Origin: Marsupella aquatica
Taxonomy: Eukaryota > Plantae > Marchantiophyta
DNA length: 64,000 bases
NCBI GenBank assembly: GCA_973895155.1
Contig: OZ316891.1
Location: 16,643,651-16,707,650 of the forward strand
Direction of reading: 5' to 3'
Numbering within the stretch: position 1 is the stretch's first letter; each line of letters opens with the position of its first letter. The notes below the pieces were generated by a model, which was not told the DNA's origin, ran no database searches, and saw only the letters and a program-made list of their open reading frames with translations. The position numbers were made by a program, and so were the translations under genes. Below are positions 1-64,000 of this stretch, in pieces.

Positions 1-736
1 CTGTCCTTGCCCAAGAAGGTTGGTTGTTGGTGCCACTGGAGTAGGTGCCATGGGAGCGGACGTTGAGCCGTAGACAAGGCCGAGCCAGAGCTAGGTTAGT
101 TGAGGGATTGTGCTTTAGAGAATATGGCGTCAAAATGGTGTCATTGTAAGTCTATTGTCCTGGGGATCTTGAACACCTTGTCAAGGAGGCAAAGGATGGC
201 TTCTCCAAAGCCGATGTACTTTTCCCCATCAAAGAAGAATTTGGTGATTTGTTCGTCCCTGCAATACTTGTTTTTGAACCAAAATCGATGATCTAGTGGT
301 GACAGCCTAGCAAGCGAGTGCGTCGTTCAAAATGCTTCTCAACTTTGTACCTTTGCGGGTTGGTTGTAGCTAGCAAGGCGACAAGATGGCCTTGTATTGA
401 AAGAAACTGGTACCAAAACCGGATAGCTTAGGAGGAACTGAGAGGAACTGAGAGGGCGGGAGGGCGGAGCGAACTCGAAGGTGTGGCTATGGTTGCCTGA
501 CTTCCCTGGACTCACCAACACGCTCACACTACCATTTTGATCATTTTATAGGGCGCTGACTCCTAGCGTGGACCTTGATATCGGAGGCGTTGCAACTTGC
601 TTGGACATTGGTGGTCGGAAGTGCCACAGAGAGGAATCGAATTAGCTGGAGCACTTCACATTTGTGAATGGAGGCCTGCAATAATTGAACTCGGCCTGCA
701 AGGTGAGTAGGTTGCTAAGCGTCACGACTAGAACAG

Positions 737-3178: not shown

Positions 3179-3214
3179 ACAAAGGAGGGTACGTAGGTAG
3201 GTCCGCAAACGATA

Positions 3215-6200: not shown

Positions 6201-7545
6201 GGAAGATATATCTTTGCGGTGGATAGGGAAAGGAGAATAGGTTTGGAAAATCTTTCAGGGCTCTCTAGGTCCATAGTTTCTTTGAGGACATAGTTGTCCT
6301 CTTCTGAGCAATCTCTTTTGGTTGCTCTTTTCTTTGATTGCATTGTACTTTACTTTTTGTGGCAGCTCCTTTGACTTTCATGGTCCCGGAGCTTAATACA
6401 TTACCATTACCATTACCATTAGGAGAAATGGCTATTCCTTCTCTGATTGCCTCCTATTGTGTTACCCTCGCTCCTTCAGCGGCTTGAGCTACACTGGCAG
6501 TCTCTGGAAAGCCTGGGAAGCACTCCGTACTCACTTGTTATTTTCGCCTGCTGGTGCTGCTGTGGCCGCTTGGTGGAGCATTGATGATATTGTCAGGTGT
6601 CTAGAAGGGTTCTAGGATCTTCCAGAAGACATGAAAGGTAGGCTGATCCGGACTTGCGGACGAATGGGTTTGAGAAAGGTTTCTGACCTCAGATGCTGGG
6701 GTGGCAACACTCCGGAATTTGCCCGACACAAGCTCAACAAGATCAGAGGTTTGGACCCGGAATTGGAGGCGCTGTGCATTTCCTTTGTGAGAAGAATCAG
6801 AAGGATCTCGGATGACAAAGAGGCTGGTTCTTCAGCAACATGCTGGATCTGGGCGGACAAAAAGGAGAGAATGAGCAAATTTGCCCTGCCTAATGCTAGA
6901 GCATACCAACTCCTGCGCACGAAAGGTTATGACTTTACTAGGCTCAACAGAATCTGGTCGCTTCATCTCTCTGATCTGGAATGGAGTAAACTTTGGCACT
7001 CACTATGGGCGTCTGATCTCCCCACGAAGTCTCGCACATTTCTCTGGAGAGTGATTGCACAAGGGCTCTTCACTAACATACGGGCTTTGCGGATGGGTAA
7101 GAGTGATGGTACTTGTGGTCTGTGCCGTAATGCTCTTGAGAGTATACCCCACATTTTCTTTACATGCAAGCTTGCTGCCAAAGGTTGGGATTTGGTTGCC
7201 AGGACTTTTCCAGATTTGATCACTTGGCCAGCAGTTGATCTGAGAGTTCTAATGGAGGCATTTCAGGGCCACAGCCTAGCTCGTTCACTGATCGTTTTCA
7301 TGGCGTATCAAGTACTCTGGCACATTTGGCTTGCTCGGAATGACAGTGTATTCAATAATGGCAGAAGCAGATGTTTTGACCTGTTGAAGATATTTACGGA
7401 GGTCATTGATTAACTCCATGGACTGTGTGAGGATTTAGGCCCCTGCAATAGGCGCACACGGTTGCTGTGGATCAAGGAGGAAATTATTAAGGAACGCTTG
7501 AACTGGGCCCCCCGGGCGGAGGCTCCGTTCTCCTCTTCCTCCTGA
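3215..7545 (+). pseudogene. L1 ORF2 (endonuclease-RT-zf), interrupted
   Basis: Pieces 3215-4015, 4209-5018, 5012-5266, 5269-5820 and 6418-7545 carry stops and frameshifts. The EN-RT linker near 4015-4200 looks short, suggesting an internal deletion. Confidence 0.92.
5821..6421 (+). mobile_element. 5'-truncated RTEX/RTE-like LINE nested in L1 ORF2
   Basis: Encodes a C-terminal LINE zinc-finger region (YRLSSHHLEVEQGRW..RVCQLC..ENEYHVFIAC), then a 3' UTR and a (CATTAC)3.8 tail at 6399-6421. L1 ORF2 stops at KWGKHTQ (5820) and resumes in the same frame at IRRNGYS (6418). Confidence 0.8.
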
Positions 7546-11389: not shown

Positions 11390-13168
11390 TGTGTCGCCTA
11401 GTCGTAGAAGTCAACTGTACCTTAACACTTAGCTCTAGCGTCGCTAACTCTGGCGCCAAGCTCCTCTATGGTCCAATCGCGGAACGGCCATCCAGTGAGG
11501 ACTAAGCATGGGGAAACTAGTGGGCAACGAGGTGTTGTACTTGCCAAGGCAATGCACTAAGCTGGTGACGCACACTAAAGACTTAGACTAGCTTGGGGCT
11601 GGTCGGGTCATGGGAAGGGGTCGGGCTCAAGGTGGACCTTCCGGACCCCCGGACGGACTTTGAGTTTTGAGGGCTTGAGTGGGACCTCCTTTTGGGCCCA
11701 AGACTAACGAAGTTTACTTCATGTGCAATGGACGCTTGGCACATGAGTTACGGCGTGGCCCAAGTGCGGCCGCCTGGGACACCCAAGTGGAAATGGGTTC
11801 TGAGGGCCCAGGCATGAGCACTGGGTTGGCCCAATCACAATAGGCTAAGACACTCTATCTATGGACGCCTAGCTAGAAAGTTATGGGCATAACAAGTTAG
11901 TTACATGTCCATGCATGCGGGTTGGGGTCCAGGTGAGGGGCCAAAATTTGTGGACTAAAGTAGGTCCGGGGTGGCAAGTCTCCAGAAACATATATGAGGG
12001 AGTGGTGTCTCCCTGGGGACCAAGGGTGAGCCCAAGTCATGAGCCACGGTGGTCGCAACACCAAGGGGAGACGACAAATGGAAACAACGATAACTTGCCA
12101 AATCCTGCCAAAATAGCAGCCAAGCCGCGTTCAATTTCCCATGGGAGCTTGCGTTGGAGAGGCAAGGCCAAGTAGGCATGGAGGTTGAGTTCCAAGTGCA
12201 CTTGGCCCCTAGGCTATCGGTTGAGTGAGAACCGTGAGTTGGTTGTTGGAGTCGGGGCCATTCTGGTCCCAACATTTTAGTACAAGCTATGCTATTTGGA
12301 CCATGAACATGTCCTAGGGGCAGAGCGGTCATCCATTAATAGATAGGTACATGGGGAAGCACGGGATGCAACCAATGAGGGACTGTTTTGGACAAACAAT
12401 GGGTTTCGGCTCTGGCTCTGGCTCTAGCTTATGGCAAAGCCATGCGGGCCAACCCAAAGGACCTATTTTCTGATTTACTTACCAATGTATGTTGAGCTTG
12501 AGTTAGGATGCTAGTCTTGGAATGTCTAGATCCTTTAGTTTACTTATCGGAGCGCTTGGTTGCTTGTGCAAACAATGAGGATCGTTGAGCAATGGTCGCG
12601 TTAGGAGCAAGTGCAGTTTCGTATGGGAGTGGCCGTCGGGGGTGCAAGAGGCATCAAGTTGCTTTCTCAAGGAGTTCCACGGAGGCGGTCAGGCACCAAG
12701 GGCACTTAGGCGTGGGTGCTAGGATTGGTGAGGGCACTGGGTGGCAAGGTCCACCACTTGTGGTAAAATAGCAATTGCTTGCATAGACACTGGGCCAGAG
12801 TTGCGCTAGGTTGGAATCCAAAAATCCTAGCAGGATTTTGTGGGGACTTAGTACTTTGACGTGTTTGGAGGCCAGGTCAACTACGTGCAGACTTTGTCGT
12901 TGGAGACATGGTTAAGAACACTTGATCAAAGAGTGGCCAAAAGACTCTCCCCACCAAGGGGAGGGCTCAAGTTTAGATTAAATAGAAGGAAATCAGATCA
13001 ACTTCCCTAGACAAGTGCTACAAGGAAGGTGATGAAGACATGGTGGTCGCGCGAACGGTTGGCCACTGCGGCAAATACATCTAGTGTAGAGCGATCCTCC
13101 AAAGGACAAGTCAAGCAAGGACAGCACCAACAACTACAGGTTTGCTCATAGTCTATGTGACAACAACA
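11390..13168 (-). repeat. LTR-like repeat, about 1.8 kb (family shared with 48713-50243)
   Basis: 11390-12770 is an inverted diverged copy of 48750-50243 (e.g. CTTAACACTTAGCTC, GAGGACTAAGCATGGGGA, GATTGGTGAGGGCACTGGGTGGC). It has TG..CA ends; no TSD was found. Confidence 0.7.
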
Positions 13169-15932: not shown

Positions 15933-18079
15933 CTAACATCTGACTAGTTTAATGACAGTCCAGAGGACGGTCCTCGTCCATCTCCACCTCCACCTCCTGA
16001 AGGCCCCGCTCCATGAGGACCAAAGTTCAGACTGAAACTGCAAACCATTCATAGTGCAATTTGTCAATGCTTTAATTTTTTCAAAGATAGTATTAATAAC
16101 TGGATTAACAATGGCCAAGTTTGGCAGCTTGGCAATGCCCTTAAATCTCGGGTCAGAACAACTTAAAGCATCCCAATCCATGGACTCAAAAAAACCATCC
16201 AAATCATTGTTTTGTTCCTCTTCAATGAAACTCGTAGGAACATCATCACCCAGTGTACTCAGGCCCTGTTCGCCAGTAGGTGCCACTAGCTCAACGCTCA
16301 CAGCTGTTGTGACAACTTCAATGGCAGCGACCTCCATCACTGGCTCAAATGTTTGCAGAACGAGAGTGGGCTCCAGTTCTATCACAAAAGGCAATGTCGA
16401 CTCTGCAGAATCGGCAGCTGCACTCATCAAGAAACATAAGTTTAGAAACAAGAGTTATATGAACCAAGCAAAACAGACCATAATGAAGTAACTTCTGTAT
16501 TACCTTCGGATGGCAGCACCTTGGCTGCATCCTTCAATTTCTTCGGCAATGGCTCATCCACCACAGATAAAGCAGGCCCAGATAGCTCTTCGCACTTCTC
16601 ACCTTCAATAAGTGCCCTCTTGCCCTTTGTTGCCTCCAAAATAACTGTCTCAGGGTAAGCAGTTCCATCTGTGGCACATCTGAGTGCAGCTCAAACTTTA
16701 GCCTCTGTGCTACGACTGTATCTCTCATACGCCCCCTCGCTTTTGTGCCCTGAGATTTTCATCCCAACCTTTGGTGGAATGCCCTCAGCTCCCATCCGAG
16801 AGATGCAAGTGGTCCGTACTGTTTTATTCGACACACCATCGGTACCGAGGCCAGCCTCCTGATGCAACACTTTCAGACAAGAGCCAAGAGTTTTCTCACC
16901 GAGTCTTGACGTTGAGTACCATGCATGCGTCCGCGGGTGGTCAATGCATTGGTAGAAAAGAAATGATGCACTTACTGGTAGATGGTGTATTAACATTCGC
17001 AATGTATTGACCACATCAAGGTCATAGTTAATCACAACAGGTCTGAAATGCTCCTCCTGATATCGATCCATACTCACTCTATAGTTCTTGCTAAGACGCT
17101 CGTCGTACTTAACAAAATCACCATGGACGTCAGTTGCAAATATAAAATCAGCCTTCATAAGATTATAGAGCTCCTTACCGCCACGGATACAAAACCGATT
17201 CAACAAAAAGAAAACTGCCCTCCTCTGTAGGCCTCGCAAGTGTGACACAGAGGTACTCAAATGAGCCAATATGATAGCCTCATCTGCAAAGGTAATGACA
17301 GAGGCTTTCTTCCTTGGCACATTAGCGCCTGCCTTCTTCGACCGCTCCATTGCTAGCACACAAGCGACAGCCACTGGCTTGAAGAGAGGAGAAGATCGCA
17401 TATTGAACACTTGCTCTTCCTTACCTGTCTCAACCACACGCCTCTCTTGTTTCTTCCTCAAAATACGGTGGAAGGCACGGTAAAGACCCATCAGGGTCTA
17501 TGAAGGATACAACTTACCGTCCTTCTTGCAAACCTGTTCAAAGAACTTCATCAAAAGCATTACACAGTCTCGACCAGCCATTTCCTCAAACGGAGTGGTA
17601 GTCTGCCACCCTTTGAACTCATGAAACTTACTTAGGCGGTTAGACGCCCTCTGATCAACAGCTGCACTTGGGTTACTCCCACCCTCGGCAAGGGTGCGCT
17701 GAAACTGTGCGTCTTCCGGCAGGAACTCGCATGAAGTTCCGTTCGGGAGATTGACTGTCAACTGTTGGGAGATGATGGAAAGTGCAATGACATCAGGGTC
17801 TCCATGTATATCTTGAATGTCAGAATCTAGACAAGATAGTGACTCAGCAGCACAAGAGCTCTCAGCGAATGGATCAGACACAGTTCCACTCGAGGCTACA
17901 GCAGTCGAAGTCATTACTGACATCCCCAAGCTAAACAATGGTGCAGTCTCTCTGGCGACGTCTGCTTCATCAACGACCATGTTGAAACACACGATCAGTT
18001 GGCTGAAATGAAGTCTCATTTCAGCTCTACAGTGACCGACTAGGCGCAGCAGGGAAGAAACAAACGAATGTAGAGACAA
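15933..18079 (-). pseudogene. DUF3504/Crypton tyrosine recombinase, 2 in-frame stops, 1 predicted intron
   Basis: ORFs 17498-18079, 16691-17491 and 16442-16639 share a frame (stops TAG 17498-17500, TGA 16691-16693). Catalytic set: R (FCIRGG), K (SKN), K-x-x-R (NKTVR), H (SGHKS), Y (YERY), with an upstream KKDGKLYP motif. A GT-AG intron at 16503-16418 joins in frame to ORF 15933-16451. Confidence 0.85.
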
Positions 18080-18639
18080 ACGGATTGTTACTCAATGACA
18101 TCGATCTGGAGTGCTTCGAACGCGGTACATCTTGATGGAGAAAGGATTCAACAATGCTGAATACTGCTAAACATTCAAAACAACCTTGGAAACTTTTTGG
18201 AGGCATAATCCAGCGCTTTATTGTTGCGTTGAATAGATGTTAGTGTAAAAACACTACAGACTAACCTACATCTGCAAACACAGCGGCAATGACTGTTAGC
18301 GAGAACATTCACCATTAACATCGATATCAGACAAGCAGACAACATCAATATCAGATAAGCAAAAGACATTAACGACAATGAGAACTAACAGACACAACTC
18401 TTAGGAGTGCAGCTCTAGAAACGCCTGAACTGGCTCGGAGCCAGTCTCCGCAGCCAATTGACGCCGCCTGAACAAGTATGGGGGGCAATGTTTGCTAGAC
18501 CATGATACAGATTACAACAAGCATTACAAGAACATGATACAGATTACAACGAGGATTACAGGTCATTAAAAATGCATGCATTGCCGTAAACACACTAACT
18601 GCACCACCAGCTTGGAATATCCGTAGCCTGTTAGTTGCG

Positions 18640-22684: not shown

Positions 22685-24379
22685 TCAGACTAGCTCCCAG
22701 TCGTTCAAGCTGTCACTGCTGGGTGTCCTTTCCATACCGTCACAACTCTGCAATGATGCACTGGACATCGATTTTCCTAATCTCATCGCCCTGTATTCTT
22801 CACTCACGAACCAGTGTGCGTACTGGTCATCCGCTCCTTCTGGTAAACTTCGCTGCAGATATTGCTCACTGACCTGCAGTAACGAATAGACAGACTCAAC
22901 ACCCTGATAAGAAAACCAAGTTTCACTCCCATGGCAAATTTTCAGATTGACTTCTGAAAATTTGCCAGAAGTCACATGGACTTCTCCCTTTGGAAAAATT
23001 AGGCAGGCGGTGTGAACGAGATTATTCAGAAAATGCAAACAACATAGGACAGAAATTACAGAGGAAACCTACAAGCGTACTATACATCCACTAATTGACG
23101 CAATTCTTGCCAATAGTCTAAACGTTACATCAAGTCGCTTACGGTTGGGGTTAAGGGCACCGCAGAGTAATCGAGAATAGCAGGTTCCGTAGCTTCCACT
23201 TCCAGCGATGGTAGACCTTCTCGGATGACCTCTTGGTCATGTTGAACTTCAGCAATGTGGTCTAGGTTAACGTCCTCTATTGCAGAACCGGATATTGATG
23301 CTGTTTCGAAAGTGGTCAGGTTAGGATCAAAAAAGAAAACAAAAAAGTAGACACTGGCATCTGCAATGGCAAATATGACGGTGACTGGTACTGGCAAAAC
23401 CTAATGAGATCACTACAAATTGGCAGAGACTACATCCTTGGAAAGATGTAAACTTTTTCCATTTCTTTGTGAGCATTGCAACAGCCACTTCAATAAATTC
23501 CAACAGCTAGACCAACCTACTATTTAGGAAAATAATATACATAATTCTTCAAATTGTTCAGTCGACATGCATATTGAGCAAGCCAGACAGAGAATTTTGA
23601 AGCCAATTGTCTACGACCCTACATCAGATTATTTAAAAATGATTAGAAAGCAAACATACCTTCAGGATGGAAGACAGGGGCATTGATCAGCTTTGCTAGT
23701 TTTGCTGCCTTTATCGTTTTGTCTGCCCCCCTCAGCAAACCATTGCTCTGCCCTAACTCTGCTTCACCTTGTGACCCCTCAAGTTTTTGAGGAGTATCCG
23801 GCAGAAGCATTTCCTTCACAAACTCTGCACAAAACTTCCGCATGTTCGTACCTACCGTAGTCATTTGCTTCTCGAAGTAGGCACTAGTTTCCTGGAGACA
23901 TTACATCCAAGTCAGAAGTGCCAAAAGAACGCTACCTGGATGCCTGCACTTCTCTTCACTTAACGGAATTGATGACGATAGATGAACTTTTGACTTAAGA
24001 GTCTCTAAACAACTTTTCATAAAACGATTTCGGAGAATTTGCACGTGTCAAGATAATTGATCATACATACGAAAATATGTTATTTAGGGAATATGTCCTG
24101 AATCCACAAGAAATTAGCACAATATGTGGCCCATATCTTGTAGCAAAATATATACTCTTTACTGCAATTAGTCCATGAATTTTGCCAGACATGCTGTCAA
24201 AAACTAAAATGACTGCAATGTTTATGAAACTGGCAAAAACGCAAAAAGGCTCATACCTGCACAAGGTGATTGGGATTTCTAGCTGTCTCAGTCTCACAAA
24301 AAGCCTCCAGCTTTTGCTGCATGCGGTCCATCCACGACGGCTCCTTCGCAGGACCCTGCCGCTCATTTTGCGGAATCAT
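22685..24379 (-). CDS. ATI3-like protein (At1g17780/At2g31130-type family) with C-terminal ATG8-interacting motif, about 233 aa
   Basis: Four GT-AG exons in consistent phase: 24379-24257, 23891-23660, 23300-23143, 22873-22685. The N-terminus SWMDRMQQKLEAFC..QETSAYFEKQMTTVGTNMRKFCAEFVKEMLLP resembles this family as I recall it. The protein ends SDSLNDWELV*. Confidence 0.75.
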
Positions 24380-48712: not shown

Positions 48713-50243
48713 TGTGGTGCTGGCAGGGACAGATTGCCCAATTAGGGGTTAGCACAAGTGGTGAACCTAGCCACCCAGTGCCCTCACCAATCCCAACACT
48801 CACACCTAAGTGCCCCTAGTGCCCAAACGCCTCCACAGAATACCTCAAGCAAACATCCTAGTGCCTCTTGCACCGCCAACGGCCCCTCCCATATGAAGCT
48901 GCACTTGCTCTCCAACACGACTACTACTCAACGGTCCTCACTCTCTGCACAAGCAACCAAGCACCTGGGTAAGTAACCCTTCAGGATCTAGAACTCGCCA
49001 AGTCTAGCATCCTAACTCAAGCTCAACAGACATTGGTAAATAGGTCAGTGATAGGTCCTTCGGATGCCATAAGTCAAAACCAGAACTCACGCCCACTGTT
49101 CGTCCAGAACTTGTCCTTCCTTGGGCGCGGTCCGGGTTCCCCCTCGTACCTATCCATCACCAACTGACCGCCCTGACCCCAGGACATGCTCATGGCCCAA
49201 ATAGCTTAGCTTGTCCTAAAGCTTGTCCCAATGCGTCCGGACCACAATGGCCCCAACTCAAGCAACCAACTCCCGGTTTGCCTCATTGATGGTCTAGGGG
49301 CTGAACACTCTTGGAACTCAACCTCCACACCTACTTGGCCTTGCCTCCCCAACGCAAGCTCCCTTGGGAGACTGAACGTGGCTTGGCTATTGTTCGGCAG
49401 GATTTGGCAAGCGGGTGAGTTAACACCCGCAAACCCCGAGAACCCATGGTGACCCCAGACCCAGCTGAGCTTACGAGGACGTAGCCCTCCTTGAGAGCTT
49501 TCCAACGCACCCAAGGAGTCCCCCAACGGACTTCCTGCTGGAAAAATATCACCGTTTCCGTTTGACGGTTTCCCTTAGTGTCGAGACCGCCACGACTCAC
49601 GATTTCGGCTCGCCCTTAGCTCCCAAGGAGACACCAATCCCCTCATATATGCTTTTAGAGACCTGCCACCCCCGGACCAGCTTTGGTCCCTAAATTTTTG
49701 GCCCCCAACCCGGATCCTATTGCGCATAATGGGCGTGCCATCAACTGGCACTTCCCATAACTTTCTCGTTTATTAGGCATCTGCAAGCCTTAGCCCGTTG
49801 TGATTGGGCCGACTTAGTGCTCATGCCTAGGCCCTCAGGTCTCATCGCCGCTTGGGGCCCCCGACCGGCCCAACCCAGATCGGGCTATAACTTGCGCCCT
49901 AGGCGTCCGTTGCCCATGGCGTCAACTCCATTGGCCTTGGGCCCAAGAGGAGCTCACACTCAAGCCCTCAGAACTCAAAGTCCATCTGGAGGTCCGGACG
50001 GTTGTCCTTGAGCCCGGCCCATTTTCCCTTGACCCGACCAACTCTCAGCTAGTCCAAGTCCTTAGTGTGTGTCACCAACTTGGCTCCTTGCCTTTGCTAG
50101 CGCCACGTCTTGTTGCCTACAAGTCTCCCCATGCTAAGTCCTCCCTGGATGGCCTATCCGGGCCTGGACCATAAGGGAGCTCGGCATCAAAGTCAGCAAC
50201 GCCGGAGCTAAGTGTTAAGGTAGTCGAGTTCCATGACTGCACA
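48713..50243 (+). repeat. LTR-like repeat, about 1.5 kb (family shared with 11390-13168)
   Basis: TGTGGTGC..TGCACA, an inverted homolog of 11390-12770. It is either the gypsy 5' LTR or a solo LTR in its leader; no canonical PBS or TSD was seen. Confidence 0.7.
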
Positions 50244-50282
50244 TAGATTAGATGGATGACTATAATTTTGTGATTGGTCATC

Positions 50283-51500
50283 ATGGCTTCTTCTGGTGCT
50301 ACGGGGCTACCCGATGGACGGCGGACTGGTTTCACTTGGAGTGGGATGCAGTTTTGGTCAGCGACATTGGTAGCAGTCAACAACGTAGCTTCAGACAGTT
50401 ATTCTGACAAGGACTCTATGACCAATTCTTCTCTTCATCAGGTGATTGCATCTTTGTTGTGGGATATGGAAGAGATGTACGGGGTTACGAAGGGCCCACG
50501 GAGATACTCTGGTGCAGTTGGCACAATTAATCTGGATGACTTTATCCAGGACTTTGATACGTGGTGCAATATGCAGGCAGTGCATAACATCACGTTATTT
50601 ACCCCTTTCATGGCATGGAAGGGATTATTTCAGCATTTGGAGGGGCCACCCATGGATGACTACCATGACTTTTGGAACTTGGCTCATTTGGTTGAGATTG
50701 AGGCATGGAGGCAGCATTGGTCGCCTAATTACGTGTCCATCACCTATGACACTAGTGCGGCTGCCCAATCCATTGCCACAGCTGTTGCTTCTTCTAGTAG
50801 CACTAGCCAGAGTGGCACACCATCCACTAGTAGCACCCCAGTAGCATCCACCGCTACTCCTACCGGTGCGATTGTGGCAAGGGCTGGAGCTACGCCAGCA
50901 TTTAACCTTGTAGTGGAGTTCTTTGAGGTATTGAAGCAGAACTATTAGGGTGTGAGGACTGATAAGTTGAAGGGTCTCCAGGAGTTTCAGCACAAGACTC
51001 AAGAGAGTCTACGTGAGGCATATACTCGTATGCGCAGATTGATCACTATCACCAAGGGAGTGACAGAGGCCCAGGCAGTCCAGTTTGGGTATGCAATTCT
51101 AGACAAAGAATTGCGACGCATAGTGAGAGATGTCACCCTGCTTAGGGATGCAGATCTCACATTGGCAGTTGTTTGTACACTTTCTGAGCGCATTGAGCTC
51201 AATATGGTGAATGAGAAAGTGGTGACTTTCGGATTTGCCAAGGAAGCACCAAAGGCTGCATCTACCCCCACATCATAGCCTTCTACACGCAAGAACCAGA
51301 GGGAGAAGCCCACTACACGGGAATCTACTTCTCAGAGACCTGTGCCTTCCTATGCTAGACAGCAATCAGGATGTTGGACCTATGGTGGGGACCATGCGTA
51401 GCAATATTGCCCTAATCATAGAGGGCCAGGAGGGGCCTCAACACCTGATCAGTGGCAATGTGATTCGCTCCTGGACACACCAAGGATAGGTGTTTCTCAT
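50283..51500 (+). pseudogene. gypsy gag
   Basis: RYSGAVGTINLDDFIQDFDTWC and LQEFQHKTQESLREAYTRMRRLI (retrotransposon gag-like), plus degenerate Cys/His knuckles at about 51370-51500. Confidence 0.75.
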
Positions 51501-52384
51501 TCCATCCTGAGTTACGGAGAGGAGGACAGCGCACACATGATTAAGGAAGATGAGGTAGAGGTGGCGGTCGTGGCCGACGTATGCCACATGCAGGAAGACA
51601 GGGAGGTGATGTTGCTCCTACTATGACCATAGATCCCAAGGATGCTAAGATTTCTCAATTGGAGCAACAACTAACTGCTATGGCTAGTTCTCAAATGAGA
51701 CCTGCTTCTGGTGATGGGGCTTCTACATCTCATGGAGCTTCCACATCCTATGGGGCTGATGGAGACCTTGCCACCATGGGATTCATGTGTGGTATTGCGC
51801 ATATTCATGCAGCAGCTTTGACACGTGGGGCAGCCAAAGCTCTTGAGCCCCGAGGAGTAGTAGTGGAGCTAGATCCACAAAGGGGGGATGCACATCGTCA
51901 GAAAAAGCTTCCTTACTAGTCTTTTACATTGTCAAAGATAGTTTAGACTGCCTCTATGAACCCGATCCGGACAAACCCTAGTGTGGCTAAGTTGGCAAAA
52001 TCATAGGATGTTGCAACAAGGATGACAGGTACCTTGCTGGGGGTGGCTACCACCATAGTGCGCACCCCGCTATTTTCAGCGACAAATATGCTAACATTGG
52101 GGGTTGGTCTAGCTGATGTGTTCACATTAGCAGCCACATTATGCGAGGATACTTCAGTTTTGGCTTCTCATGCAGAGGTAGCATGCAGTTCTAGAGTAGT
52201 AGAGTTGACACCACCTACTACTATTAGTGAGAAATGGCATGCAGCAGCAACAAAGTTGATGGATTTGCCAGCACGCCTCGCATTTGAGAGGACTAGGTTT
52301 AAACCTAGCGGTGTATCATTGGATAATCGGAGTGGTATCTTCCAATTAGTTGGGCCTACTAGAGCAGTATACTAGCTAGAGAGA

Positions 52385-52700
52385 GTGTTACTGGATACTG
52401 GTGCCCAACCCTTAATGTTGGGTAAGTCTGTAGTACGAGGATTGGGATTGCGTCTAGAAGATCTGAAGGAATGTCCCTTTCCTATCCAGACTTCATTAGG
52501 GGGACCTACACCCACACAGCACATCACCAGACGACCACTTGACTTGCGGATTCAGGAGGGTCATGCAAAGGATAGCTCTCACATATAGACACGAGCTATT
52601 TTGACTAAGGCAGAGTCCTATGATGTGTTGGTGGGATGTACAGTACTTTACCGCATGGGATTCATCCTTGATTTTTGGGATGAATCAGTTTCCTATCTAC
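52385..52700 (+). pseudogene. retroviral-type aspartic protease
   Basis: VLLDTGAQPLMLGK and YDVLVG motifs. Confidence 0.85.
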
Positions 52701-53019
52701 CTGCTTGGCAGTCTGGAGATGCTAGATTGAGCAGATTGCCAATGCGATTTAGTAGACCTGTGGGGGTCCTAAACCTGCATCATTGTCTTTGGTAGCATTT
52801 AGTGGTGTGATCATTGATCCTGACAATTTGATTGAGGGCAACGTACATGTAGCAGATATTCCAACAGTGGAGCAGTCACATGAGGAGAAGGTCATGCAAG
52901 GGTTACCTGTTGGTAGTGTTGTGCCACCACAGCTAGGAGCAGAGCAGTCTCCTACAGGTAGGTTGGTGACTCTTTCACCATTGGATACCACTCCCATTGC
53001 ATGGCAGTATCCACCAGAG

Positions 53020-53960
53020 GATATTTGTTTGTTGGATTTATTTGGTGAGATTAGCACTGGATTGGTTGTTGTTCTTCAGGCAAGAATTTCAGTGTGTCGT
53101 TACTTGTATGTGGAGATAGATGAGACAACATGGAGAGTCTCATTGCGCCATGTGGCTATGTTGGTGGATTGTTATCCATAGTTATTGCCAGTGGATGTTG
53201 TTCATGGCTATCAGCAAGCACTGCCTACTGATATTTTATTGTTGGGGGTGGATCATTTGGATTGCATTGGCCCTATTGATTTGGTGATTGCTGGTTGGCC
53301 ATGTCAAGGCCTATCTAGAGTTGGAGTTGGAGATGGACTTCATGATCCACAATCTGCATTGTTTTGGGAGATGTTACGGGTGTTGCGTCATCTCTAATGC
53401 ATTAGACACAGTCTCCAACCTACATTTTGGAGAATGTGCCACTCTTGGGTGATCATTGTCAGTGGATTGTTGCCAGTGTTCATCAAGTGAGGTCTTGGAT
53501 TGGACCTACTGTGTTATTGGATGTTGCACATGTGGGTTCTTGTGCACATCGTCCACGTTTGTGGTGGACTAATTTGTTATCAGGTGAGGTGTTGAAGCGA
53601 GCATTTGACAACATTCCTTGCTTGCCAACCTTGGTAGTGGATGATATTTTGGATCCAGGGCGTTGTTCACAAGGTGTGACCCGGCCTGACAGATCTCCAT
53701 TGGCCATAGTCAATGTGGTTGGGCATCCACGTTGTGCATTACCCACTTTTGTGAGCCACTCTGCTTCATATGCTTTTAGCGCATGTGGCCCTGGACTTGT
53801 GTGATACAGCTCTATGACAGTTAGTAGAGCCCACTACTGATGAGAGAGAGCGGGCCATGGGGTTCTCCATAGGTACAACTGCTGTTGCATCTATGTCAGA
53901 GAGTTCACGCCGCCAGGTCCTTGGCCAAGCCATGGATTTGAATTGTTTGACTTGGATTGT
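53020..53960 (+). pseudogene. DNMT3-like C5-cytosine DNA methyltransferase domain inside gypsy pol
   Basis: Motifs in canonical order: I LLDLFGEISTG, II YVEID, III TDI, IV DLVIAGWPCQGLS, V DPQSALFWE, VI ENVP, VIII AHRPRLWWTNL, IX ERERAMGF..GTT, X RRQVLGQAM. Disrupted by stops (53179, 53395) and two frameshifts. Confidence 0.92.
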
Positions 53961-54168
53961 CAGTTTGGGAGTAGAGCAATTCTGGAAGCGCTCTATTGGC
54001 ATTATAGATTGTCCATTGGTGAGCTTGCGGCCTACTAAGATAGTAGTGGCCATAGTTGGGGGTGAGCAAACAACCCATGGACCTATGGCAGGATTGGCCA
54101 AGGCTGGACAGATTGTTGAGCAAGAAGGGACTGCTCAAACTATTGCTAAATAGCAATCATCAGCTATC

Positions 54169-54897
54169 TTGTCTACCCTACAAGAAGATATTAGGGATTT
54201 GGTGGAGAGTTGGGAGCCACAGATTGGTCCTAAGTTAACAAGGGAGGAGAGATGTCGCATGCATCGATTCCTAAAGAGTTACTGGAATTGTTTTGCATTC
54301 AGCATGAAAGATTTGGGGACATTGAAGGGCCTTGGTATTCAAATTGAATTGGCTAGTGATGCGTCAATCTTTTGTACACCATACCGTTATAGTGACATGA
54401 AGAAAGCTTTGATTTGGAGCAAAACTCAAGATTTGTTGGAGGTTGATTTGGTGGAGATCTTGTACGGGGAGTATGCCAATAAGGATGTGCATGGTAATTA
54501 CACGGATAGGCACATGTGTGGTGATTACCAACCTATTAATTGTCAGACAAAATCTGATCGATATGCCATGCCCATACCTGAGGAGATCTTTGATGTTGTG
54601 GGGCATGCAAAGGTTTTTAGTTCATTGGATTTGAGGGCAGGGTACCATCAGCTTCCGGCCATCAGACATTTTGACAGGTCCAAAACAACATATGGGGAAT
54701 TGATTTGCATGGCAAGGATCGTTTGTATCAGTGGTTGTTCTTACCATTTGGGTTGAAGAATGCACCAGCTGAATTCCAGAGAGTCATGGATCAAATTCTT
54801 ACAGGTTTGGATTGTGTCAAATGTTACATTGATGATATTTTGGTCTATTTTTCCATTGTGGAGGAACATCAACAGCACTTACAGATTGTGTTGGAGA
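54169..54897 (+). pseudogene. gypsy reverse transcriptase (N-terminal part)
   Basis: CGDYQPIN, YAMPIPEEIFD, FSSLDLRAGYHQ, LPFGLKNAPAEFQRVM and YIDDILV. It breaks off at about 54897. Confidence 0.92.
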
Positions 54898-56483
54898 CAC
54901 AACTACATTTCGCTACGTCGTGACTTCCTTCCACGTCTTGTGACGTAACGTTCTTCCTCATTATGTCTTCTACTACGTCATAACCCAAAATTCTTGACGT
55001 AAGCCAAACCGCGGGTGACACCAGGAGGCTTTCAATTCCAAATTTACGTCGTCTAGAGCTTCTCAAAAGTAACGTATCTCCCAACAGGACTATTAACGTC
55101 ATTTGGTTCGAGGTAAACAATTATACGTTGTACTATACGACGTAACTTAATTTGTTTGGAGAGACGTATATATGGACGTCGTTTGAGATGTGGCTCTAAC
55201 CGATACCATGCATAAGACTACGTAGAATGCATGCTCTACCATGTTAGATGTAAATGACAAATGTGGGTAACGCCGTAAATGTTTTGAAATCCGTCATGAG
55301 TAAGGTTTTTTGTGGGAGTTTTTGGGTCAAGGCTATTGGGACCTCACTACACGCCCATTCATGATTTCAGACGTCCACTCCTTGCTAGTGCACAGAATTT
55401 GCATTGTGAGATTGAAAGTCTTCAGCTATGGTGCATAAGATATTCAAGGATGTTCATTGTTGTTTTGTTCCGCTAGGTGAAGAAGACAAGATTATTCGTG
55501 GGTTTTTTTGTCGTGGAGGTGTGATAGACAAGTTTTTTACCTCAAAGACGGAATATTTGCTTGCCAATACCTGGAAATAGGTCCGAGAGCACTTCAGTGA
55601 CTACCCTGGATTGATTGAGCACTTTGCAGAGATCGTGCATTTCATCTCAACTTTTTGGGTACAGTACTCCATTCTGGGCAATAAGGAGTTGGACCTAGGA
55701 GACTTGTTGCTGCATCCAGGGGACGATCTGATGCTGGATGATACGCCCAAGGATCATGATGGTGAGGCTTGTCCACCAAACTTGGCTAAATGTGAGTTGT
55801 CACCGACTAAGCTTGATATTGTGTTGTATGATTACAAGGAAAGTCGTGCAACTGAGGTTGAGGCTGAAAGGCTAAAGGTTGGTGAAGCAGTGGTCCACAA
55901 GAAATGGAACGCAAGCAATAGGCGTGATTCGTACAAAAAGAGGAAGGCAGATGAGGAGTACTACTAGTTTGGTGAAGGGACCCCTTAAGCTACACTAGTG
56001 CCAAGGTCAGTTGGAGATGGAGCACCATCATTTGCCTAGGATTGGAATCAGTTTAGACTGGAGTCAGACTCATGCCTTATGTGCACCTTGTATGTTTTTG
56101 AGCGCATGAATAAAAAGTCCATCCTAGGCAATTTATATTTGTAATGTGTACCATGAGTAACGTCGATTGAAAGATTTTACGTCACTAGAAGAATGGTTTA
56201 ATAAGAATTTACGTTGTCTCATACACGGTAACATAAATACATCCTTCACTGCGAGGTAAAATTGCAACGTACCCTTTTTACGTCGTTGATACAATGTAAC
56301 AATGATGTAACTATAAATTAACATTGGTACTATGGGTATACGCGACGTTGTGTTGTATAATGTTCTTTAGGGCAACGTTAATTAGTGCAAAGTGTGAATT
56401 GGCCTGCTTCATAAGGGTTTATGTGCTAGGACCCATTTAAGGTTGTTCGAAGGCCGAGGTTTAATGCTTTTTAATGTGTTCTT

Positions 56484-56652
56484 TGTTATAAGTGATAAAC
56501 CTAACCCTGGTAAACTAGACTTACCCTAGTGAATAGGGACAAGAGGTGGTTACATAACCACCACGCCATGTACTATATAGGGAGCCCTCATACTCCCAAA
56601 TGGAATAGAAGGTAGTGAGTTTGTTGGCGCATGAGATCTATGTCCCTGAATA
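56484..56652 (+). repeat. 5' LTR
   Basis: Direct repeat of 62351-62519. Confidence 0.97.
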
Positions 56653-56665
56653 CGTTATCAGCACG
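56653..56665 (+). promoter_or_regulatory. PBS (half-tRNA-Met type)
   Basis: CGTTATCAGCACG immediately after the LTR, without the usual TGG; matches Bianca-lineage PBS as I recall it. Confidence 0.7.
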
Positions 56666-57093
56666 ACTCTTGATCTGAGCATTTTTTTCCTTACACATCA
56701 GCTCGAGCAAAATTTTGTTTGAAAAAAAAAATGGAAAATCTCCACACCAGCCCACGAAAGACAAAAACATCTAAGGATTTCAGTTTTTTTTTAGGATTCC
56801 AACAATAGCTTTGCCCTCACATCAATCTCTCCTCCCTGAACGCGACCTTCTCCACAAAAATTACCCAACATCTAGCAAGGACGGCCCTTGAAATATCGGA
56901 GCAGGCACGAGGAAGGTCGATACAAGGCAAATGGACCATCAAGAATGGCTGTACACGGACCAATATCAGGGAAGTCCCGATCCCATCCCCCAAGATTACA
57001 CAATTTCAAACAAGATACACCAAGGAAAACTTAAGCAATTTCCATTCACTGAGACACTTCCGATTACCAAAGATACAATACTTCGATTGAACA

Positions 57094-60000
57094 ATGACTA
57101 CGATTGAGAAATTACAATTTAAGGCATTAGCCATAGACGGTGAAAATTATTTAACATGGTCACTTGACATTGAGGCCTATCTTGCATCCAAAGACTTGCA
57201 GGACGCAATCCTAACCGATGCAGGCCTCACACTACAACAGAAGGCAAGAGCGCTAATCTTCATTCGACATCACTTGGCCGAGCCACTCAAGACCCAGTAT
57301 CAGAACCAATATAATCATAGAATACTCTGGGAAGATGTGAGATTACGGTTCAACCACATGCGGCTTGTCTCCCTGCCAACGGCCCGCCATGACTGGATCA
57401 ATCTTAGAGTCCAAGACCACAACTCAATAGCGAGCTACAATGGCAAACTATTCCGGATCACCTCACAATTTGCAGTCTGCGGGCACCCCATCAATGACGA
57501 CGAAATGATAGAGCACACCCGTTCAACGTTCAACATAGGAAACTTACTCCTGGCATCACAGTACAGAAATATGGGCTTCACTAAATATTCTGAACTGATC
57601 GCATATATGCTTCTTGCCAAAAAAACACCAATTACTCCTCCTGGAGAATGCCAAATCTCGCCCACCAGGGGCCGCTGCACCCCCACCAAGACCAGAAGCC
57701 AACTTTAATCGCCAGAACGACAGGCCCAAAGGGAGAGGAAATGGAAACTTCAAGGGGAGAAGAGGCACAAACCCCGGTAGGGGTAGATATCAACAAGGCG
57801 GTAGAGGCATCGGCCAACCCAATAGAGAAGACCAAACATTCGGAAACTTTAACAGAAGAGGTGGATACAGAGGAAGAGGAGGCGGACTTAGAGGAAGAGA
57901 CCGAGGGGGGCGCCTCACCAGGGGATATTACAATTGGAACCGAGAAGACAATAACCCCATTGAATGTTTCAGGTGCAGAACAAAGGGACACCTACAAAGA
58001 GACTGTCGGGCACCGGCACACTTGGTCACACTCTACAAGCAGAGCCAGGAACAACCCACCAATAGAGCACAGGGCAACTACATGGAGGCCCTAGACAACA
58101 TTGAGGGCTATAGATTAGACCCAGCAGTACCCGAAGTCCACACCGCCCAACTAGGCTCCACCTCAACACCACCGAACGACCACAGTAACTGCATTGTGGA
58201 CAGCGGAACATCTCACTCAATACGACGAGACAGACATTATTTCCTCCAAATCACACCATCCAACAGATCCATGACAACGATAATAGGACCTAACCACATA
58301 GAGGAAGGCTACGGCCCGGCCAGAGTCAGATTCCCAAAAGGGACTACAATCTACATCGACTCAGCAATTTACGCACCAAGGGCGACAAAGAACCTAATCA
58401 GCTTCAACGATATCCGCGCAAATAAGCTACATGTCCACACTGATACCCACAACAATAGGGAAGTGCTGCAGATACTAGACAACACCAAACCAGGGGGAGG
58501 AGTCCAAGAGATCTTACCAATTTACCCCCTGGCTTATACATCGCCCGGATACACTCTTACCACACACAACTCCCCACTCTTAATTTAACTCAAACCTGGC
58601 ATAATTGCCTTGGTCACCCCGGCACCAATATGTACCATAACATTCTGAAGACCACGGTGGGGATACCCCACGGAGTTCACCCCTCAGCCTTGAACAAACC
58701 CTGCATCGCTTGTTCATAGGTACAGATGGTGACTCGGCCTGCACCATCAAAAACCATACATAAGATCCCACAATTTTTAGAGAGGATACAAGCAGATGTC
58801 TGCGGGCCAATCAAACCACCCTCCGGCCCATTCCGATACTTCATGGTCATTATAGACGCCTCCACCAAATGGTCATAGGTCTCATTGCTCTCCACACGGA
58901 ACCTAGTCTTCACCAAAATATATCTTATCTCACATACTGAAACTCAAACACCAATTCCCAGAGAATCCAATCAAAACCATCAGAGTTGACAACGCGGGGG
59001 AGTTTACCTCAAAAACGTTCGACAACTTTTGTGAGACTACAGGGATAGACACCAAATACTCGGTCCCACATGCCCACTTCCAGAATGGTATCGCCGAATC
59101 GGTGATAAAACGCATACAGATGGTGGCCAGGCCACTGCTAATGCAATCCAACTTACTAGCTTCAACATGGGGCCATGCGGTCCTACACGCTGCCGCCCTC
59201 CTAAGAATAAGGCCATCCTCCTGCAATACCCAGACCCCTCACTTCTTGGCATACGAAATGCCACCGAACATCACCCATCTCCAAACATTTGGATGCCTGG
59301 TCCTGGTCCCAATAGTCGGCCCCAAACGGACCAAAATGGGACCCCAGAGACAACGAGGCATCTACATGGGACTAGACTCATGTTCTATCATCAGGTACTT
59401 GGAACCTACGATAGTAGACATATTTAAAGCAAGGTTCCAAGACTGCCAATTCTTCGAAGATGAATTCCCAACTCTCGCCGAAGACATTGCTAGAAGCGGA
59501 CATGTCAAAGCACAAGAACTACAATGGCTGCCCACAAAACCAATCACTGATGACCACCGGACCAGAGAAGCAGACCAAGGAGTACAAAGGGTCCTCCATT
59601 TATAGCAGATGCTCACGAACTTACCTGACTCTTTCAACGATGCAGCCACAGTCACACGGTCACACACGGAGGCAGCAAATATACCCGCAAGAATTTCACG
59701 GACAGCCCCACAGGCAATGGTAGCCGCACCAAAGGCAAAATGGGGCCGACCTCTAGGCTCCAAGGATATGTACCCGCAACCACCACGCAGCGCATCACCA
59801 GCACCCACGGCAACCCCTGCACGAAGATCACCCCCTACAAGGGATACAACAAACGAGGAAATAACAATCAGCTACATACACACCAGACAGATGATGCAGC
59901 GAAATACAACACAAATCAATGACCACTTTGCATTCCATATCTCTGAGGAGATAACCAACAAAACCCCCGACCCCATTACAGTAGCAAAGGCCCAATCTCG

Positions 60001-61780
60001 ACCAGACTGGCATCAATGGGAGCTGGCCATAAACTCCGAATTAGACTCCCTGATAAAACAAAACATCTTTGGACCAGTAATCCCTGCCCCCGCAGGGACA
60101 CACCTTATGGGATATAAGTTCACATTTTTGAGGAAACAAAATGCAAAGGGAGAGGTAATCAGATACAAAGCTTGCTTGGTAGCGAAGGGCTACACCCAAA
60201 TTCCCGGCCGGGACTTTGACCAAACATACTCCCTGGTGATGGATTCCATAACATACCGGTACCTCATTGCGTTTACACTCTTGCACAAGCTCGTCATGTA
60301 CACGCTAGACGTGATAACAGCCTGCCTGTATGGTATCCTAGATACCACAATATACATGAAGGCACCCCTGGAACTGATCAAAAGAATAAGGTTCCACATT
60401 GAGGGGGAGAAGAATGGTACCACAGACTGCGATCTACAACCGGGCCTAACCCAAACCGGCCCTACAAGCGATTTGGACAAAATGACGAGCAAGCTCGGAC
60501 CTACAGTACCGACACCAAAGGATATGCTTCACACATTCGACCTCGGGAAACGAACAGTCCTCCTACCGAACACCTCTGCTACACAGCCAAAACGAGTCAA
60601 AAGAGAACTCGCAGTCCAAGTCCTACGCTCAATGTATGGATTAAAATAGAGCGGACACACCTGGTACAAACAATTCAAAGCTAAAATGCTCGCACTGAAC
60701 TTCAATACTGACAACATTGCCCCATGTTTGTTCCTCAAATAGGAGGCAGATGAATTTGTTATCATCGCAATTTATGTAGATGACATAAACATCTTTGGCA
60801 CAGCAACGATAATGCAGAAGACAATCAAAATCGTGAAGAAGACATTCAAGATAAGGGACATCGGGAAGCCTAGCTATTGCCTGGGATTACAATTCAACTA
60901 CTTGCAGCAGGGAATCCTGATCAACCAATCAACTTATACCGAAAAGGCGCTACGAAAATTCAACATGGCATCCGCCCACCCGGTCAGCACCCCCATGGAC
61001 CTAAGATCCTCAGACCCCACAAGGGACACCTTTAAAAAATGGGCAGAGACAGAGGAGGTTCTTGGCCCCAAGAAGCCATACCTCTCAGCCATCGGGGCCC
61101 TGATGTACCTAGCGACATAGTCACGCCCCGACATTGCTTTTGCCGTCAATCTACTTGCTTGTCATAGCTCCAACCCCACAATCCGACATTGGAATGGAGT
61201 AAAAAGGGTATTCCGATACCTGCGTGGCACAACGGACATGGGGCTATTCTTCCCCAAGAACTCAGAAAACATGCTGACCGGCTACGCGGACGCGGGCTAC
61301 CTCTCAGACCCAGACAATGCAAAATCCCAAATAGGATACGTCTTCCTACAAGGTGGCATGGCGATCTCTTGGAAAAGCAGCAAACAATCACTCACAGCAA
61401 CCTCCTCAAATCATGCCAAGATAATAGCACTTTACGAAGCCACCAGGGAAAGCATCTGGCTGAGAAACCTGATAAACCACATACACCTGCACACAGGCAG
61501 AGCGTAGCTAAAGAAACCAACAACTATATACGAAGACAATCGACCCTACGTGGAGCAGATAGTCCAGGGATTCATTAAAGGGGATAGAATCAAACACATA
61601 GCACCCAAATTCTTTTTCACTCACGGACAGCATGGCGAACAGGTCCAAGTACAATGGATTCCAAGTAAAGACAACCGCGCGGACTTGTTCACTAAACCAC
61701 TCCCACCAGCACTACACCGCAAACATGCATACGGGATAGGACTGCGAAGTATGGCATCACTTTTACAAGGAAAAGAATGA
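57094..61780 (+). pseudogene. copia gag-pol polyprotein, multiple stops and frameshifts
   Basis: gag DGENYLTWSLD, knuckle CFRCRTKGHLQRDC, protease IVDSGTSHSI, integrase (DVCGP, RVDNAGEF, QNGIAE), RT (YKACLVAKGY, YVDD at about 60773) and RNase H (GYADA, YEDN, ADLFTKPL). Confidence 0.95.
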
Positions 61781-62341
61781 CGCAGGCCATCAAGGAACTT
61801 ACCCAAACTGCACACCCATTACTGCCGATCAAACTGATACAACGGGAGCTCCAACATCATATGCTACCCCCAATCCGCCACCCCGAACCATCGAGAATCA
61901 CGCAGAACCGATGAGACTTGATCAATCCCAACACACAAACGACGACCTCCCAACATGGCCGCACCGACTACCAAACGAACGAAGATTCAAACGATGTCAG
62001 CAGCCCACCAAAGCAACAGACCGACGATTGGAGGCGTTCAACCCGTGGCCCGCATGATGCGTAAACAACTCCTTAAACATAAACACAGACCACGAGTCTT
62101 TAGACACATTAACGGACACATACATAGAGATTACACCTTTTAATTTCCCTTATGCACCCTTTTTGCATACTATAAGGACTTACATTCAATAACTAGACCC
62201 AAACTTATGTTATAGTAGTGGCACTCTTTCCATAATGGAAGCATGGTTTTAATGAGACCATACTACATTGGGCCAGACCATAGACCATAGGGTTAGCTTT
62301 CCCCATCATATGGTTGGCTGTAACACACTCATCACCCAACC

Positions 62342-62519
62342 AAGGGGGAGTGTTATAAGTGATAAACCTAACCCCGGTAAACTAGACTTACCCTAGTGAA
62401 TAGGGACAAGAGGTGGTTACATAACCACCACGCCCTATACTATATAGGGAGCCCCCATACTCCCAAATGGAATAGAAGGTAGTGAGTTTGTTGGCGCATG
62501 AGATCTATGTCCCTGAATA
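62342..62519 (+). repeat. PPT and 3' LTR
   Basis: AAGGGGGAG (62342-62350), then LTR 62351-62519. Confidence 0.97.
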
Positions 62520-62664
62520 TTCTTAGCTATAAAGTGAGGAAAGAAGAAACTTTGCACAACTCTCCCTCCAGTTTGCCAGATCCCAAATGCTAGAACATAT
62601 GTCAATATATATGTGGAAGGTGGGCATAGCCAATACATATAAATGGAGGGTGTGAAGGATAGTG

Positions 62665-64000
62665 TCAGTCCCCATCATCTGCAAGGACTGATGGCATTAA
62701 GCCCTTCCCTTGCCGAGGGAAAATTGGAATGACAATGGACCATCCTCTCATGGTGTGCATCGGAACCATAATGCACTGATCCACCTGGCTAGGAAAAACT
62801 ATGGTGTCACTAAACTCAGTCCCTGTGGGTGCAACTCGGGTTGTGTCCACGCGATAAAAACCACACTCATCCGCAACCATCGTAGCTCTCGCTGGAGGTG
62901 ACATGATCGACTTGTGCCACCTCACCTCTAATACAGTGGTGACAAATGACCCAAAATGAACATCTGAATTGTCCACAACTGTCCCACAATAAGGAACCTC
63001 TACATCATCTACATCAGTCATCATGAAGATTCCAGAGTTACAAGTACTCTTCTTCATATGGTCCGTCCTCCAAGTCCGAAAGTGGTGCCCTGACTCATAC
63101 ATGTGTGTATGAGTCGTGGCCCACATCCCTGGCCCCCTAATGATGTTTTGTACATCAATGGGAATGGATGTAGGCCCATGCAGAGCCAAGAGCCTGTCCA
63201 TGCGCTCCAAAGCCCAGACACAAAAAATGATGCAATGCCACGACCTGTTTGCGCAACTCCCACTTGAAGCTCCAACCATGCACTGCCAAATATGTTGTCA
63301 CAAGATTGTTAGAGATTTGCAGCCTTCTCAAATCCAAATCCAAATCACAATCTCATACAATTTTAGAGTACCATACCTATACATCTCCCTCCAATCAGAC
63401 ATCTCCGGTCGATTGCCCAACACATAATTATGGATCTGTCGATGGAAGATGTCATCATCCAATGATTGCTTCTTGGCCGCACCCATCAATTGCAACCCAC
63501 CATTGTCATCATCTTGTGCCTCTTCCCAAGTCATGGGAGCCACGCTGTCCAAACTCCCTATCACCCCCAAGAATAGAAATTAAAGACACTCTGACATAAT
63601 GAACCCTGTTGCCATACTTCCCTCAGGGCGAGCTGGTTGACGCACCCAACCCTTGAGCACCTTCATATATTGCTCAATCCAATACATCCACCGGGCATGG
63701 ACTGGGCCCGCAATGGCAACTTTATCCACTAGGTGACATAGCAAGTGCATTTGCATGTCAAATAGTACATGTTGGGGGGAACACTCGCTCCAAATTGCAC
63801 ATCACTTGCGCCGTCCTCTCCCTCATCAAAGGAATGTCAGACTCCTTGATCTCCTTGCCACATACCCACCTACGAGGCACTCAAAAACATTCCAGGAATA
63901 AATATCTCAACCCAACCAATTGTGGGCTAAGATGGTTACCAATTCAATGCCTAAGCTTATTGATCTCCCTCTACCTAAGATATTCCTAATAACGTCGTTC
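62665..64000 (-). pseudogene. CACTA transposase C-terminal part (DUF4218/DUF4216-like)
   Basis: Minus strand: FDMQMHLLCHLV and GPVHARWMYWIEQYMKVLKGWVRQPARPEGSMATG (about 63590-63760), then GHHFRT..TCNSGI..PYCG and FPSQVDQC (62665-63100). Confidence 0.88.

Follow-up and report, generated by a model that had tools for sequence, protein, structure and literature searches.

A conserved stop codon between a DNMT3-like methyltransferase and the reverse transcriptase of a Gypsy retrotransposon family in land plants

The 64-kb stretch of Marsupella aquatica DNA analysed here (the window) contains a dead, 3'-truncated member of a multi-copy Gypsy retrotransposon family, in which a DNMT3-like cytosine methyltransferase (DNMT) is a standing part under purifying selection in land plants. 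The TAG codon between the DNMT and the reverse transcriptase (RT) is a conserved feature of the family, not decay; the DNMT therefore closes the first open reading frame (ORF1), and the stop separates it from the RT. The RT, RNase H and integrase are likely made by occasional read-through of TAG CAA TCA. The kind of element has been known since 2018, and the conserved stop after the DNMT is the new part.

The window copy, its methyltransferase and its family

The window copy was found to carry gag, protease, DNMT and RT in that order on the + strand (Table 1). This order, with the DNMT between the protease and the RT, had been proposed in a preliminary description made from the letters of the window, and was confirmed by both the motif positions and the Pfam matches. 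The motifs named there (LDTGA, PC, ENV, RPRLWWTNL, ERERAMGF and RRQVLG) were all present on the + strand, and the TAG lies in the RT frame. The copy had also been called dead: compared with unbroken relatives, it has at least 12 other in-frame stops and five frame changes between 50466 and 54897, and the RT ends at 54897, where unrelated sequence starts and beyond which other copies continue. RNase H, integrase and the 3' repeats of the element are absent from the 64-kb window.

The Pfam aspartyl protease match in the window (E 5.6e-4) was below the curated cut-off, and the RT matched RVT_1 with E 1e-14 and the pol of the metagenome relative L059 at 67-69%. A zf-CCHC domain is present in L059 (Pfam). 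An inverted partial copy at 11400-12766 (- strand), with no coding part beside it, matched the probable 5' non-coding part at 74-75%. Over the 5' non-coding part, the summed contig depth was greater than over the coding part of the element.

Table 1. Features of the Gypsy-DNMT element copy in the window.
Feature	Position	Strand	Remarks
Probable 5' non-coding part	48749-50238	+	Left limit approximate
gag, start of ORF1, decayed CCHC knuckle	50466-51425	+	Matches residues 1-319 of P0020 (Marchantia) at 55%, chain E 0.0
Aspartic protease	52283-52696	+	LDTGA 52391-52405
DNMT3-like C5 cytosine methyltransferase domain	about 53023-54021	+	PF00145; interrupted by stops and by two changes of frame, near 53396 and near 53802
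DNMT motif DLFG	53035-53046	+	
DNMT motif WPCQ	53296-53307	+	PC 53299-53304
DNMT motif ENV	53430-53438	+	
DNMT motif RPRLWWTNL	53550-53576	+	
DNMT motif ERERAMGF	53842-53865	+	
DNMT motif RRQVLG	53908-53925	+	
Open linker closing ORF1	54022-54150	+	Length varies by family
Conserved stop and context TAG CAA TCA (stop 54151-54153)	54151-54159	+	Candidate type I read-through signal; contig and relative comparison
Pyrimidine tract ending in AG	54165-54184	+	Candidate splice acceptor, stem arm, or mere Ser/Leu codons
ORF2: short spacer and Gypsy RT, cut at 54897	54154-54897	+	RVT_1; YIDD 54825-54836

PC and ENV of the window DNMT sit in different frames. The PF00145 profile, which had been suggested for this region, matched 53182-53394 with E 6.5e-8, above the curated cut-off. 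The domain is present as described; the DNMT proper spans about 53023-54021, whereas 52780-54170 had been put forward as the stretch to translate for the profile comparison. It is 60-68% identical to the Marchantia protein P0020. As had been claimed, the domain is intronless and its motif order is linear and not permuted; in relatives, the catalytic residues are kept. The suggested likeness to DNMT3 was confirmed with a family profile compared with solved structures, in which DNMT3A came first (E 1e-14) and DRM far behind (E 2e-5). The predicted fold was also nearest to DNMT3A (E 1e-9), in a weak AlphaFold model (pLDDT 51) that does not bear detailed reading. A DRM or CMT origin was ruled out by the linear motif order and the profile scores. 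Most relative rows retain the catalytic Cys, ENV and RxR, and ECQ replaces PCQ in many distant relatives (12/48 and 50/96).

When a 132-aa piece of the DNMT was used as a query, 35 of 1308 candidates proved to be matching proteins, with identities of 41-75%; the names among them include Marchantia polymorpha, Sphagnum and Calypogeia. Between 5158 and 16306 contigs per run (four DNA runs, two studies) aligned to 49500-55600 at 80% or more. In run X1 the summed contig depth, which is no copy number, was 28,000-50,000 over the DNMT, 24,000-46,000 over the RT and 53,000-79,000 over gag, dropping to 400-1,000 immediately beyond the truncation; the DNMT depth is of the same order as those of gag and RT. 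A metagenome scan found 224 relatives, the best 80 of which were kept for analysis. Among these best 80, the DNMT was present in 80/80 and the RT start in 66, and gag, protease, DNMT, RT, RNase H and integrase were all present in 24, the rest being mostly short or cut. The best 80 loci form two families, one peat-moss-type and one comprising L059, L079 and L080, with the window as a third. An integrase piece of L002 (peat-moss-type) was 100% identical to a Sphagnum fallax protein. Among viral contigs, 74 pattern matches yielded no relatives of the element.

Measurement of dN/dS, as the preliminary description had proposed, gave values of 0.14-0.18 for the DNMT between the three families (dS 1.7-2.2), which indicates purifying selection, and the DNMT was better conserved than the protease. 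Values within the decayed peat-moss-type copies were 0.5-0.9, as expected from decay after insertion. It had been considered that other copies might lack the domain, or that the contig might be algal; instead, the same order was found in Marchantia and Sphagnum proteins and in the metagenome loci, and the DNA is that of a land plant. The capture of a host DNMT3 retrocopy by one element as a single event, with the TAG as a decay mutation, would suit the many decay stops of the window copy and is almost certainly wrong, given the shared domain order in Marchantia, Sphagnum and the 80 loci, the low dN/dS and the near fixation of the stop.

The conserved stop and how it may be passed

Sixty-five of the best 80 loci (of 224) span the DNMT end and the RT start, and 15 cut or interrupted loci were excluded. 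The codon matching 54151 is TAG in 43, TAA in 20 (one read one base off) and TAC in two; an in-frame stop is therefore kept in 63/65 relatives, and CAA comes next in 63/65. A Gln or Trp codon (CAG, CAA or TGG) was found at this position in 0/65 loci, and the absence of CAG rules out deamination of a CAG codon as the source of the TAG. Where linkers are of the same length (n = 47), the stop falls at that codon in 46, compared with six or fewer for any other codon. Within the window's own family, comparison of 263 contigs over 54100-54205 showed 11 rows with differences of 5% or more, none of them within 54144-54159. The 65 loci are not independent, some being repeated (59 distinct junctions of 66), and the cross-family argument rests on three families because 62 of the 65 belong to one.

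TAG CAA is identical in the three families, in flanks only about 30-50% alike and with synonymous sites near-saturated between families; CAA makes up 2.2-2.6% of pol codons. The distance from DNMT end to RT start is 213 nt in the window and 270 and 327 nt in the other two families, in frame in all, and 25-28 open codons follow the stop in the three families. Similar ends were seen at the protein level only: the nearest protein, P0002 (75%), terminates at the same residue as the window ORF1, the Marchantia models P0013, P0014, P0017, P0020 and P0030 terminate 64-76 aa past the DNMT, and a further group terminates 82-180 aa past it. The preliminary description had placed the DNMT within pol, had taken the TAG for one lesion in an open polyprotein and had expected a consensus with a single open gag-PR-DNMT-RT-RH-INT frame; on all three points the conservation of the stop leads to a different arrangement, in which the DNMT ends ORF1. 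In the algal relatives P0049, P0064, P0249 and P0233 and in Closterium P0209, the DNMT and RT share one open frame, and the stop is therefore not required in the wider group.

According to PMC3542737 (section 14), UAG CAR YYA is the type I read-through motif of tobamoviruses, benyviruses and pomoviruses. The window context AAA TAG CAA TCA fits this motif fully, as does CAA CTA in L079/L080; CAA CCA in L059 also fits, and the commonest peat-moss-type context, TAR CAA CCC (55/65 loci), departs from CARYYA at the sixth base. As in the viruses, the UAG is followed by CAA and pyrimidines, two A's precede the window stop and the polymerase lies in frame downstream. Unlike them, the element is a retrotransposon with its candidate signal after gag-protease-DNMT, and its commonest context is CAA CCC. 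Among three routes past the stop (read-through, splicing and re-initiation), we consider read-through the probable one, and favour it because it would explain both the fixed CAA and the shared frame. The DNMT likely belongs to the abundant ORF1 product under read-through and splicing alike.

Splicing, with a short stop-bearing intron removed from a share of transcripts and the DNMT still made at the ORF1 level, is the chief alternative to read-through and has to be taken seriously, although we hold it to be less likely. In Ogre elements, a stop-holding intron is spliced out of some transcripts. A pyrimidine tract with AG ends 31-34 nt past the stop in all three families, and in L059/L079 an 8-of-9 donor lies 38 nt ahead of the stop and forms an in-frame pair with the acceptor (69 nt). 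The window has a weaker in-frame pair at -89/+34; however, the site matching its donor is GC and not GT in most peat-moss-type copies, and in that family the strong acceptor is in a different phase, with a fitting donor in 1/47 copies. Four Marchantia and Sphagnum gene models (P0009, P0022, P0023 and P0035) skip the DNMT-RT junction, but they are cut at differing places. Splicing would also leave the fixed CAA and the shared frame unexplained.

Production of the RT-integrase from its own start just past the stop, by re-initiation or an internal promoter, appears improbable. An in-frame ATG occurs 7 nt past the stop in peat-moss-type copies, whereas the window, L059 and L079 have none ahead of the conserved W-E-P start of the RT, and the CAA would need no conservation. 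Simple read-through does not necessarily follow from the presence of an in-frame stop, as Candida Tca2 illustrates (PMC2194720). The same source lists MuLV gag-pol, Tca2 and SIRE1 pol-env, in which structural and enzymatic proteins are kept in proportion by such a stop, as they may be in this family; here, unlike in those elements, the protease and a chromatin enzyme precede the stop, and a pseudoknot is unsupported.

A stimulating stem-loop 3' of the stop is a weak candidate only: single folds gave z of -0.5 to -2.4. A duplex between the pyrimidine tract and a purine tract at the RT start, with arms picked post hoc, beat synonymous recoding with counts of 5-21/500 for five peat-moss-type loci, 38-44/500 for L059/L079 and 61/500 for the window. 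The duplex was absent from the RNAalifold result for 39 rows.

Relatives, known elements and the wider green-plant group

The PHD finger and the split repeats are known from relatives, and the window copy ends before them. The Pfam order in L059 is RVT_1, RT_RNaseH, Integrase_H2C2 and rve (the Gypsy set), and a PHD finger was found by pattern at the integrase end in 13 loci; matches to PF00628 had E 5.5e-12 to 1.9e-8. The closest solved PHDs include those of CHD4, KDM5B PHD1, PHF21A and AIRE, which are readers preferring unmethylated H3K4 (H3K4me0). The element PHD resembles H3K4me0 readers, a resemblance to be taken as a lead only.

Full elements in relatives are about 9.2 kb. Split repeats of the form A (about 340 nt)-coding-B (115 nt)-A-B were identified in L030, L046, L047 and L066. 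TG...CA ends with exact 4-bp target duplications were present in L014, L046/L047, L065 and L066, and target duplications with one mismatch in L030 and L061. The DDE integrase, these ends and the exact duplications rule out the DIRS/tyrosine-recombinase class for the relatives. L014 (5615-14254), L065 (2507-11240) and L061 (2265-12055) showed only A-coding-B with a target duplication, as if the A-B tail had been lost by recombination between the two B repeats. No tRNA primer-binding site was evident by eye just past the 5' A repeat (L047 5841-5870 and kin), a hint that these integrase elements may be primed in the manner of DIRS.

KnitGypsy-Dnmt3 of Klebsormidium nitens was described in 2018 by de Mendoza et al. 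(PMC5890265). It shares with the present family the Gypsy domains, an intronless linear DNMT3-like domain, purifying selection and DIRS-like split repeats (here seen in relatives). In a K. nitens protein, GAQ93235.1 (P0088), protease and DNMT follow each other as they do here. It differs in that its DNMT shares an ORF with RT and RNase H, where here a conserved stop lies between, and in that it was called a K. nitens-lineage acquisition, whereas the relatives found here span Mesostigma to mosses and liverworts. Furthermore, the host here is a land plant, and the PHD carried by relatives is not named in the KnitGypsy-Dnmt3 figure legend. We regard the window element as a variant of the KnitGypsy-Dnmt3 kind, because its DNMT lies outside the RT ORF and the other features are mostly shared.

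Chlamydomonas Gypsy-7a_cRei also has a PHD finger in its polyprotein and LTRs of sub-repeats, but DNMT is missing from the domain list of its legend (PMC9940879), and REM1 is cited in PMC8557442 as a PHD-bearing Chlamydomonas Gypsy element. SymbioDIRS-Dnmt3 and the EpiLTRs are likewise retrotransposons with their own cytosine methyltransferase (PMC5890265; bioRxiv 10.64898/2026.05.21.726589), but are tyrosine-recombinase elements, or carry DNMT4-related domains with DAM and a chromodomain, and are of another lineage. The accessible parts of PMC12344493 and of the same bioRxiv preprint mention 'streptophytes' without naming a land plant, and those of PMC9516144, PMC11244446 and PMC6453930 contain no description of bryophyte elements of this sort. 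No paper on a land-plant Gypsy-DNMT3 or its stop was found in the literature searched, most subscription journals being outside its scope.

A profile search of 1.84 billion representative proteins gave 450 matches at E<1e-30, the best 150 of which were taken. Two layouts were seen among the matches listed: protease-DNMT before RT, and RT-RNaseH-DNMT-integrase-PHD. Organism names exist for a minority of rows in both sets; the named DNMT-before-RT members are streptophytes (Mesostigma, Klebsormidium GAQ93235.1, Closterium, Marchantia and Sphagnum), and the named RT-RNaseH-DNMT-integrase members are chlorophytes (Chlamydomonas eustigma, Scenedesmus and Cymbomonas). Fern, hornwort and seed-plant names numbered zero among the named matches, and as most matches are nameless this is no evidence of absence. 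The RT-RNaseH-DNMT-integrase-PHD polyproteins form a large set (P0056-P0282), about half with ECQ and not PCQ and many missed by PF00145, of which no description was found in the literature searched.

A DNMT tree (FastTree) was built from 189 domains, after 32 near-copies were dropped from 221, with no host DNMT3 included. All 96 RT-first rows fell within one 125-row group (SH 96), and the bryophyte rows formed one 24-row group (support 100). The RT tree comprised 69 rows, with one protein present in duplicate; in it, one side of a branch (97) consisted of the 10 DNMT-before-RT rows. Both trees are without an outgroup, so neither decides a single origin. P0088 is on the DNMT-before-RT side of the DNMT tree, its placement relative to the bryophyte group not being settled, and the RT tree holds no Klebsormidium RT. 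The Klebsormidium-like ORFs P0088, P0118, P0204 and P0246 end 5-6 aa after the DNMT (protein only), and this algal family may therefore also split the DNMT from the RT.

Only tentatively, Gypsy-DNMT3-PHD could be viewed as an ancient lineage of all green plants that goes back to a single early capture, the DNMT having come to follow RNase H in chlorophytes and the protease in streptophytes. In bryophytes, a leaky stop of the viral type would then have moved the DNMT to the Gag side; particles would hold far more of it than of RT, and it would pre-methylate cDNA and be able to spill onto host DNA.

Proposed role of the methyltransferase, and other sequence in the window

We lean slightly towards a model in which ORF1 encodes gag-protease-DNMT3 and its stop is read through now and then to give RT, RNase H and a PHD-integrase, with DNMT at the Gag level methylating particle cDNA and the PHD steering to silent chromatin. 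Ribosomes would pass TAG CAA TCA at a few percent, yielding RT, RNase H and the PHD-bearing integrase, and DNMT would be made at about 10-20x the level of RT/integrase; the general Gag:Pol ratio is given as 20:1 (PMC2194720). The element protease would free the DNMT within the particle, and the 9-kb cDNA would be methylated there, before integration, by a slow enzyme present in many copies. The PHD, like readers of unmethylated H3K4, would steer integration into silent chromatin, and new copies would land already resembling old heterochromatin.

It is rather unlikely that the DNMT is instead kept for a role other than on cDNA, either to act in trans on rival elements or the chromatin of the host, or to bind DNA as a component of the particle. 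Gag-level amounts would exceed the possible need of one cDNA per particle, and the ECQ of many distant relatives would suit such a role. The Klebsormidium (KnitGypsy-Dnmt3) enzyme had no activity in yeast, a result called inconclusive, but the related SymbioDIRS-Dnmt3 domains methylate CG (both from PMC5890265). The retention of the catalytic Cys, ENV and RxR in most rows also argues against it.

Why a transposon should carry its own silencing enzyme has been a question since 2018, so far approachable only in algae with poor genetics. Because Marchantia gene models hold an unbroken gag-protease-DNMT frame, self-methylation by a transposon can be put to the test in a plant with established genetics. 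In the published picture, DNMT is one-to-one with RT and expected to act in cis, and the conserved stop alters that: the likely large excess of DNMT is in line with bulk methylation of the cDNA within particles, and would also let the enzyme act on the genome of the host. In Marchantia and Sphagnum, gene models of this type that are labelled 'DNA methyltransferase' should be read with caution, as they are transposon ORFs.

Several other features were noted in the window. A decayed LINE (719-7413, + strand) has a CCHC ORF1, an endonuclease-like frame and an RT (RVT_1 E 2.6e-18), with another fragment inserted near 5772-6293. A tyrosine-recombinase-like frame at 16691-18091 (- strand; Phage_integrase E 3.9e-4, below the cut-off) is perhaps a Crypton-type transposon remnant. 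An exon-like frame at 22688-23026 (- strand) had a Calypogeia fissa protein as its sole match of 38 candidates (81% over 61% of the query) and no Pfam family; by this one match, the host is likely a leafy liverwort. Decayed frames at 62665-63801 (- strand) had no Pfam match and resemble by eye what we take to be a CACTA-type transposase. The sequence that cuts the Gypsy RT (54898-64000) opens with CACAACTACA, followed by short CGTCG/ACGT-rich repeats. Inside it lies a copia LTR retrotransposon (56484-62519, + strand) with gag, protease, integrase and RT, several stops and 169-nt LTRs that are 98% alike, which is a young insertion.
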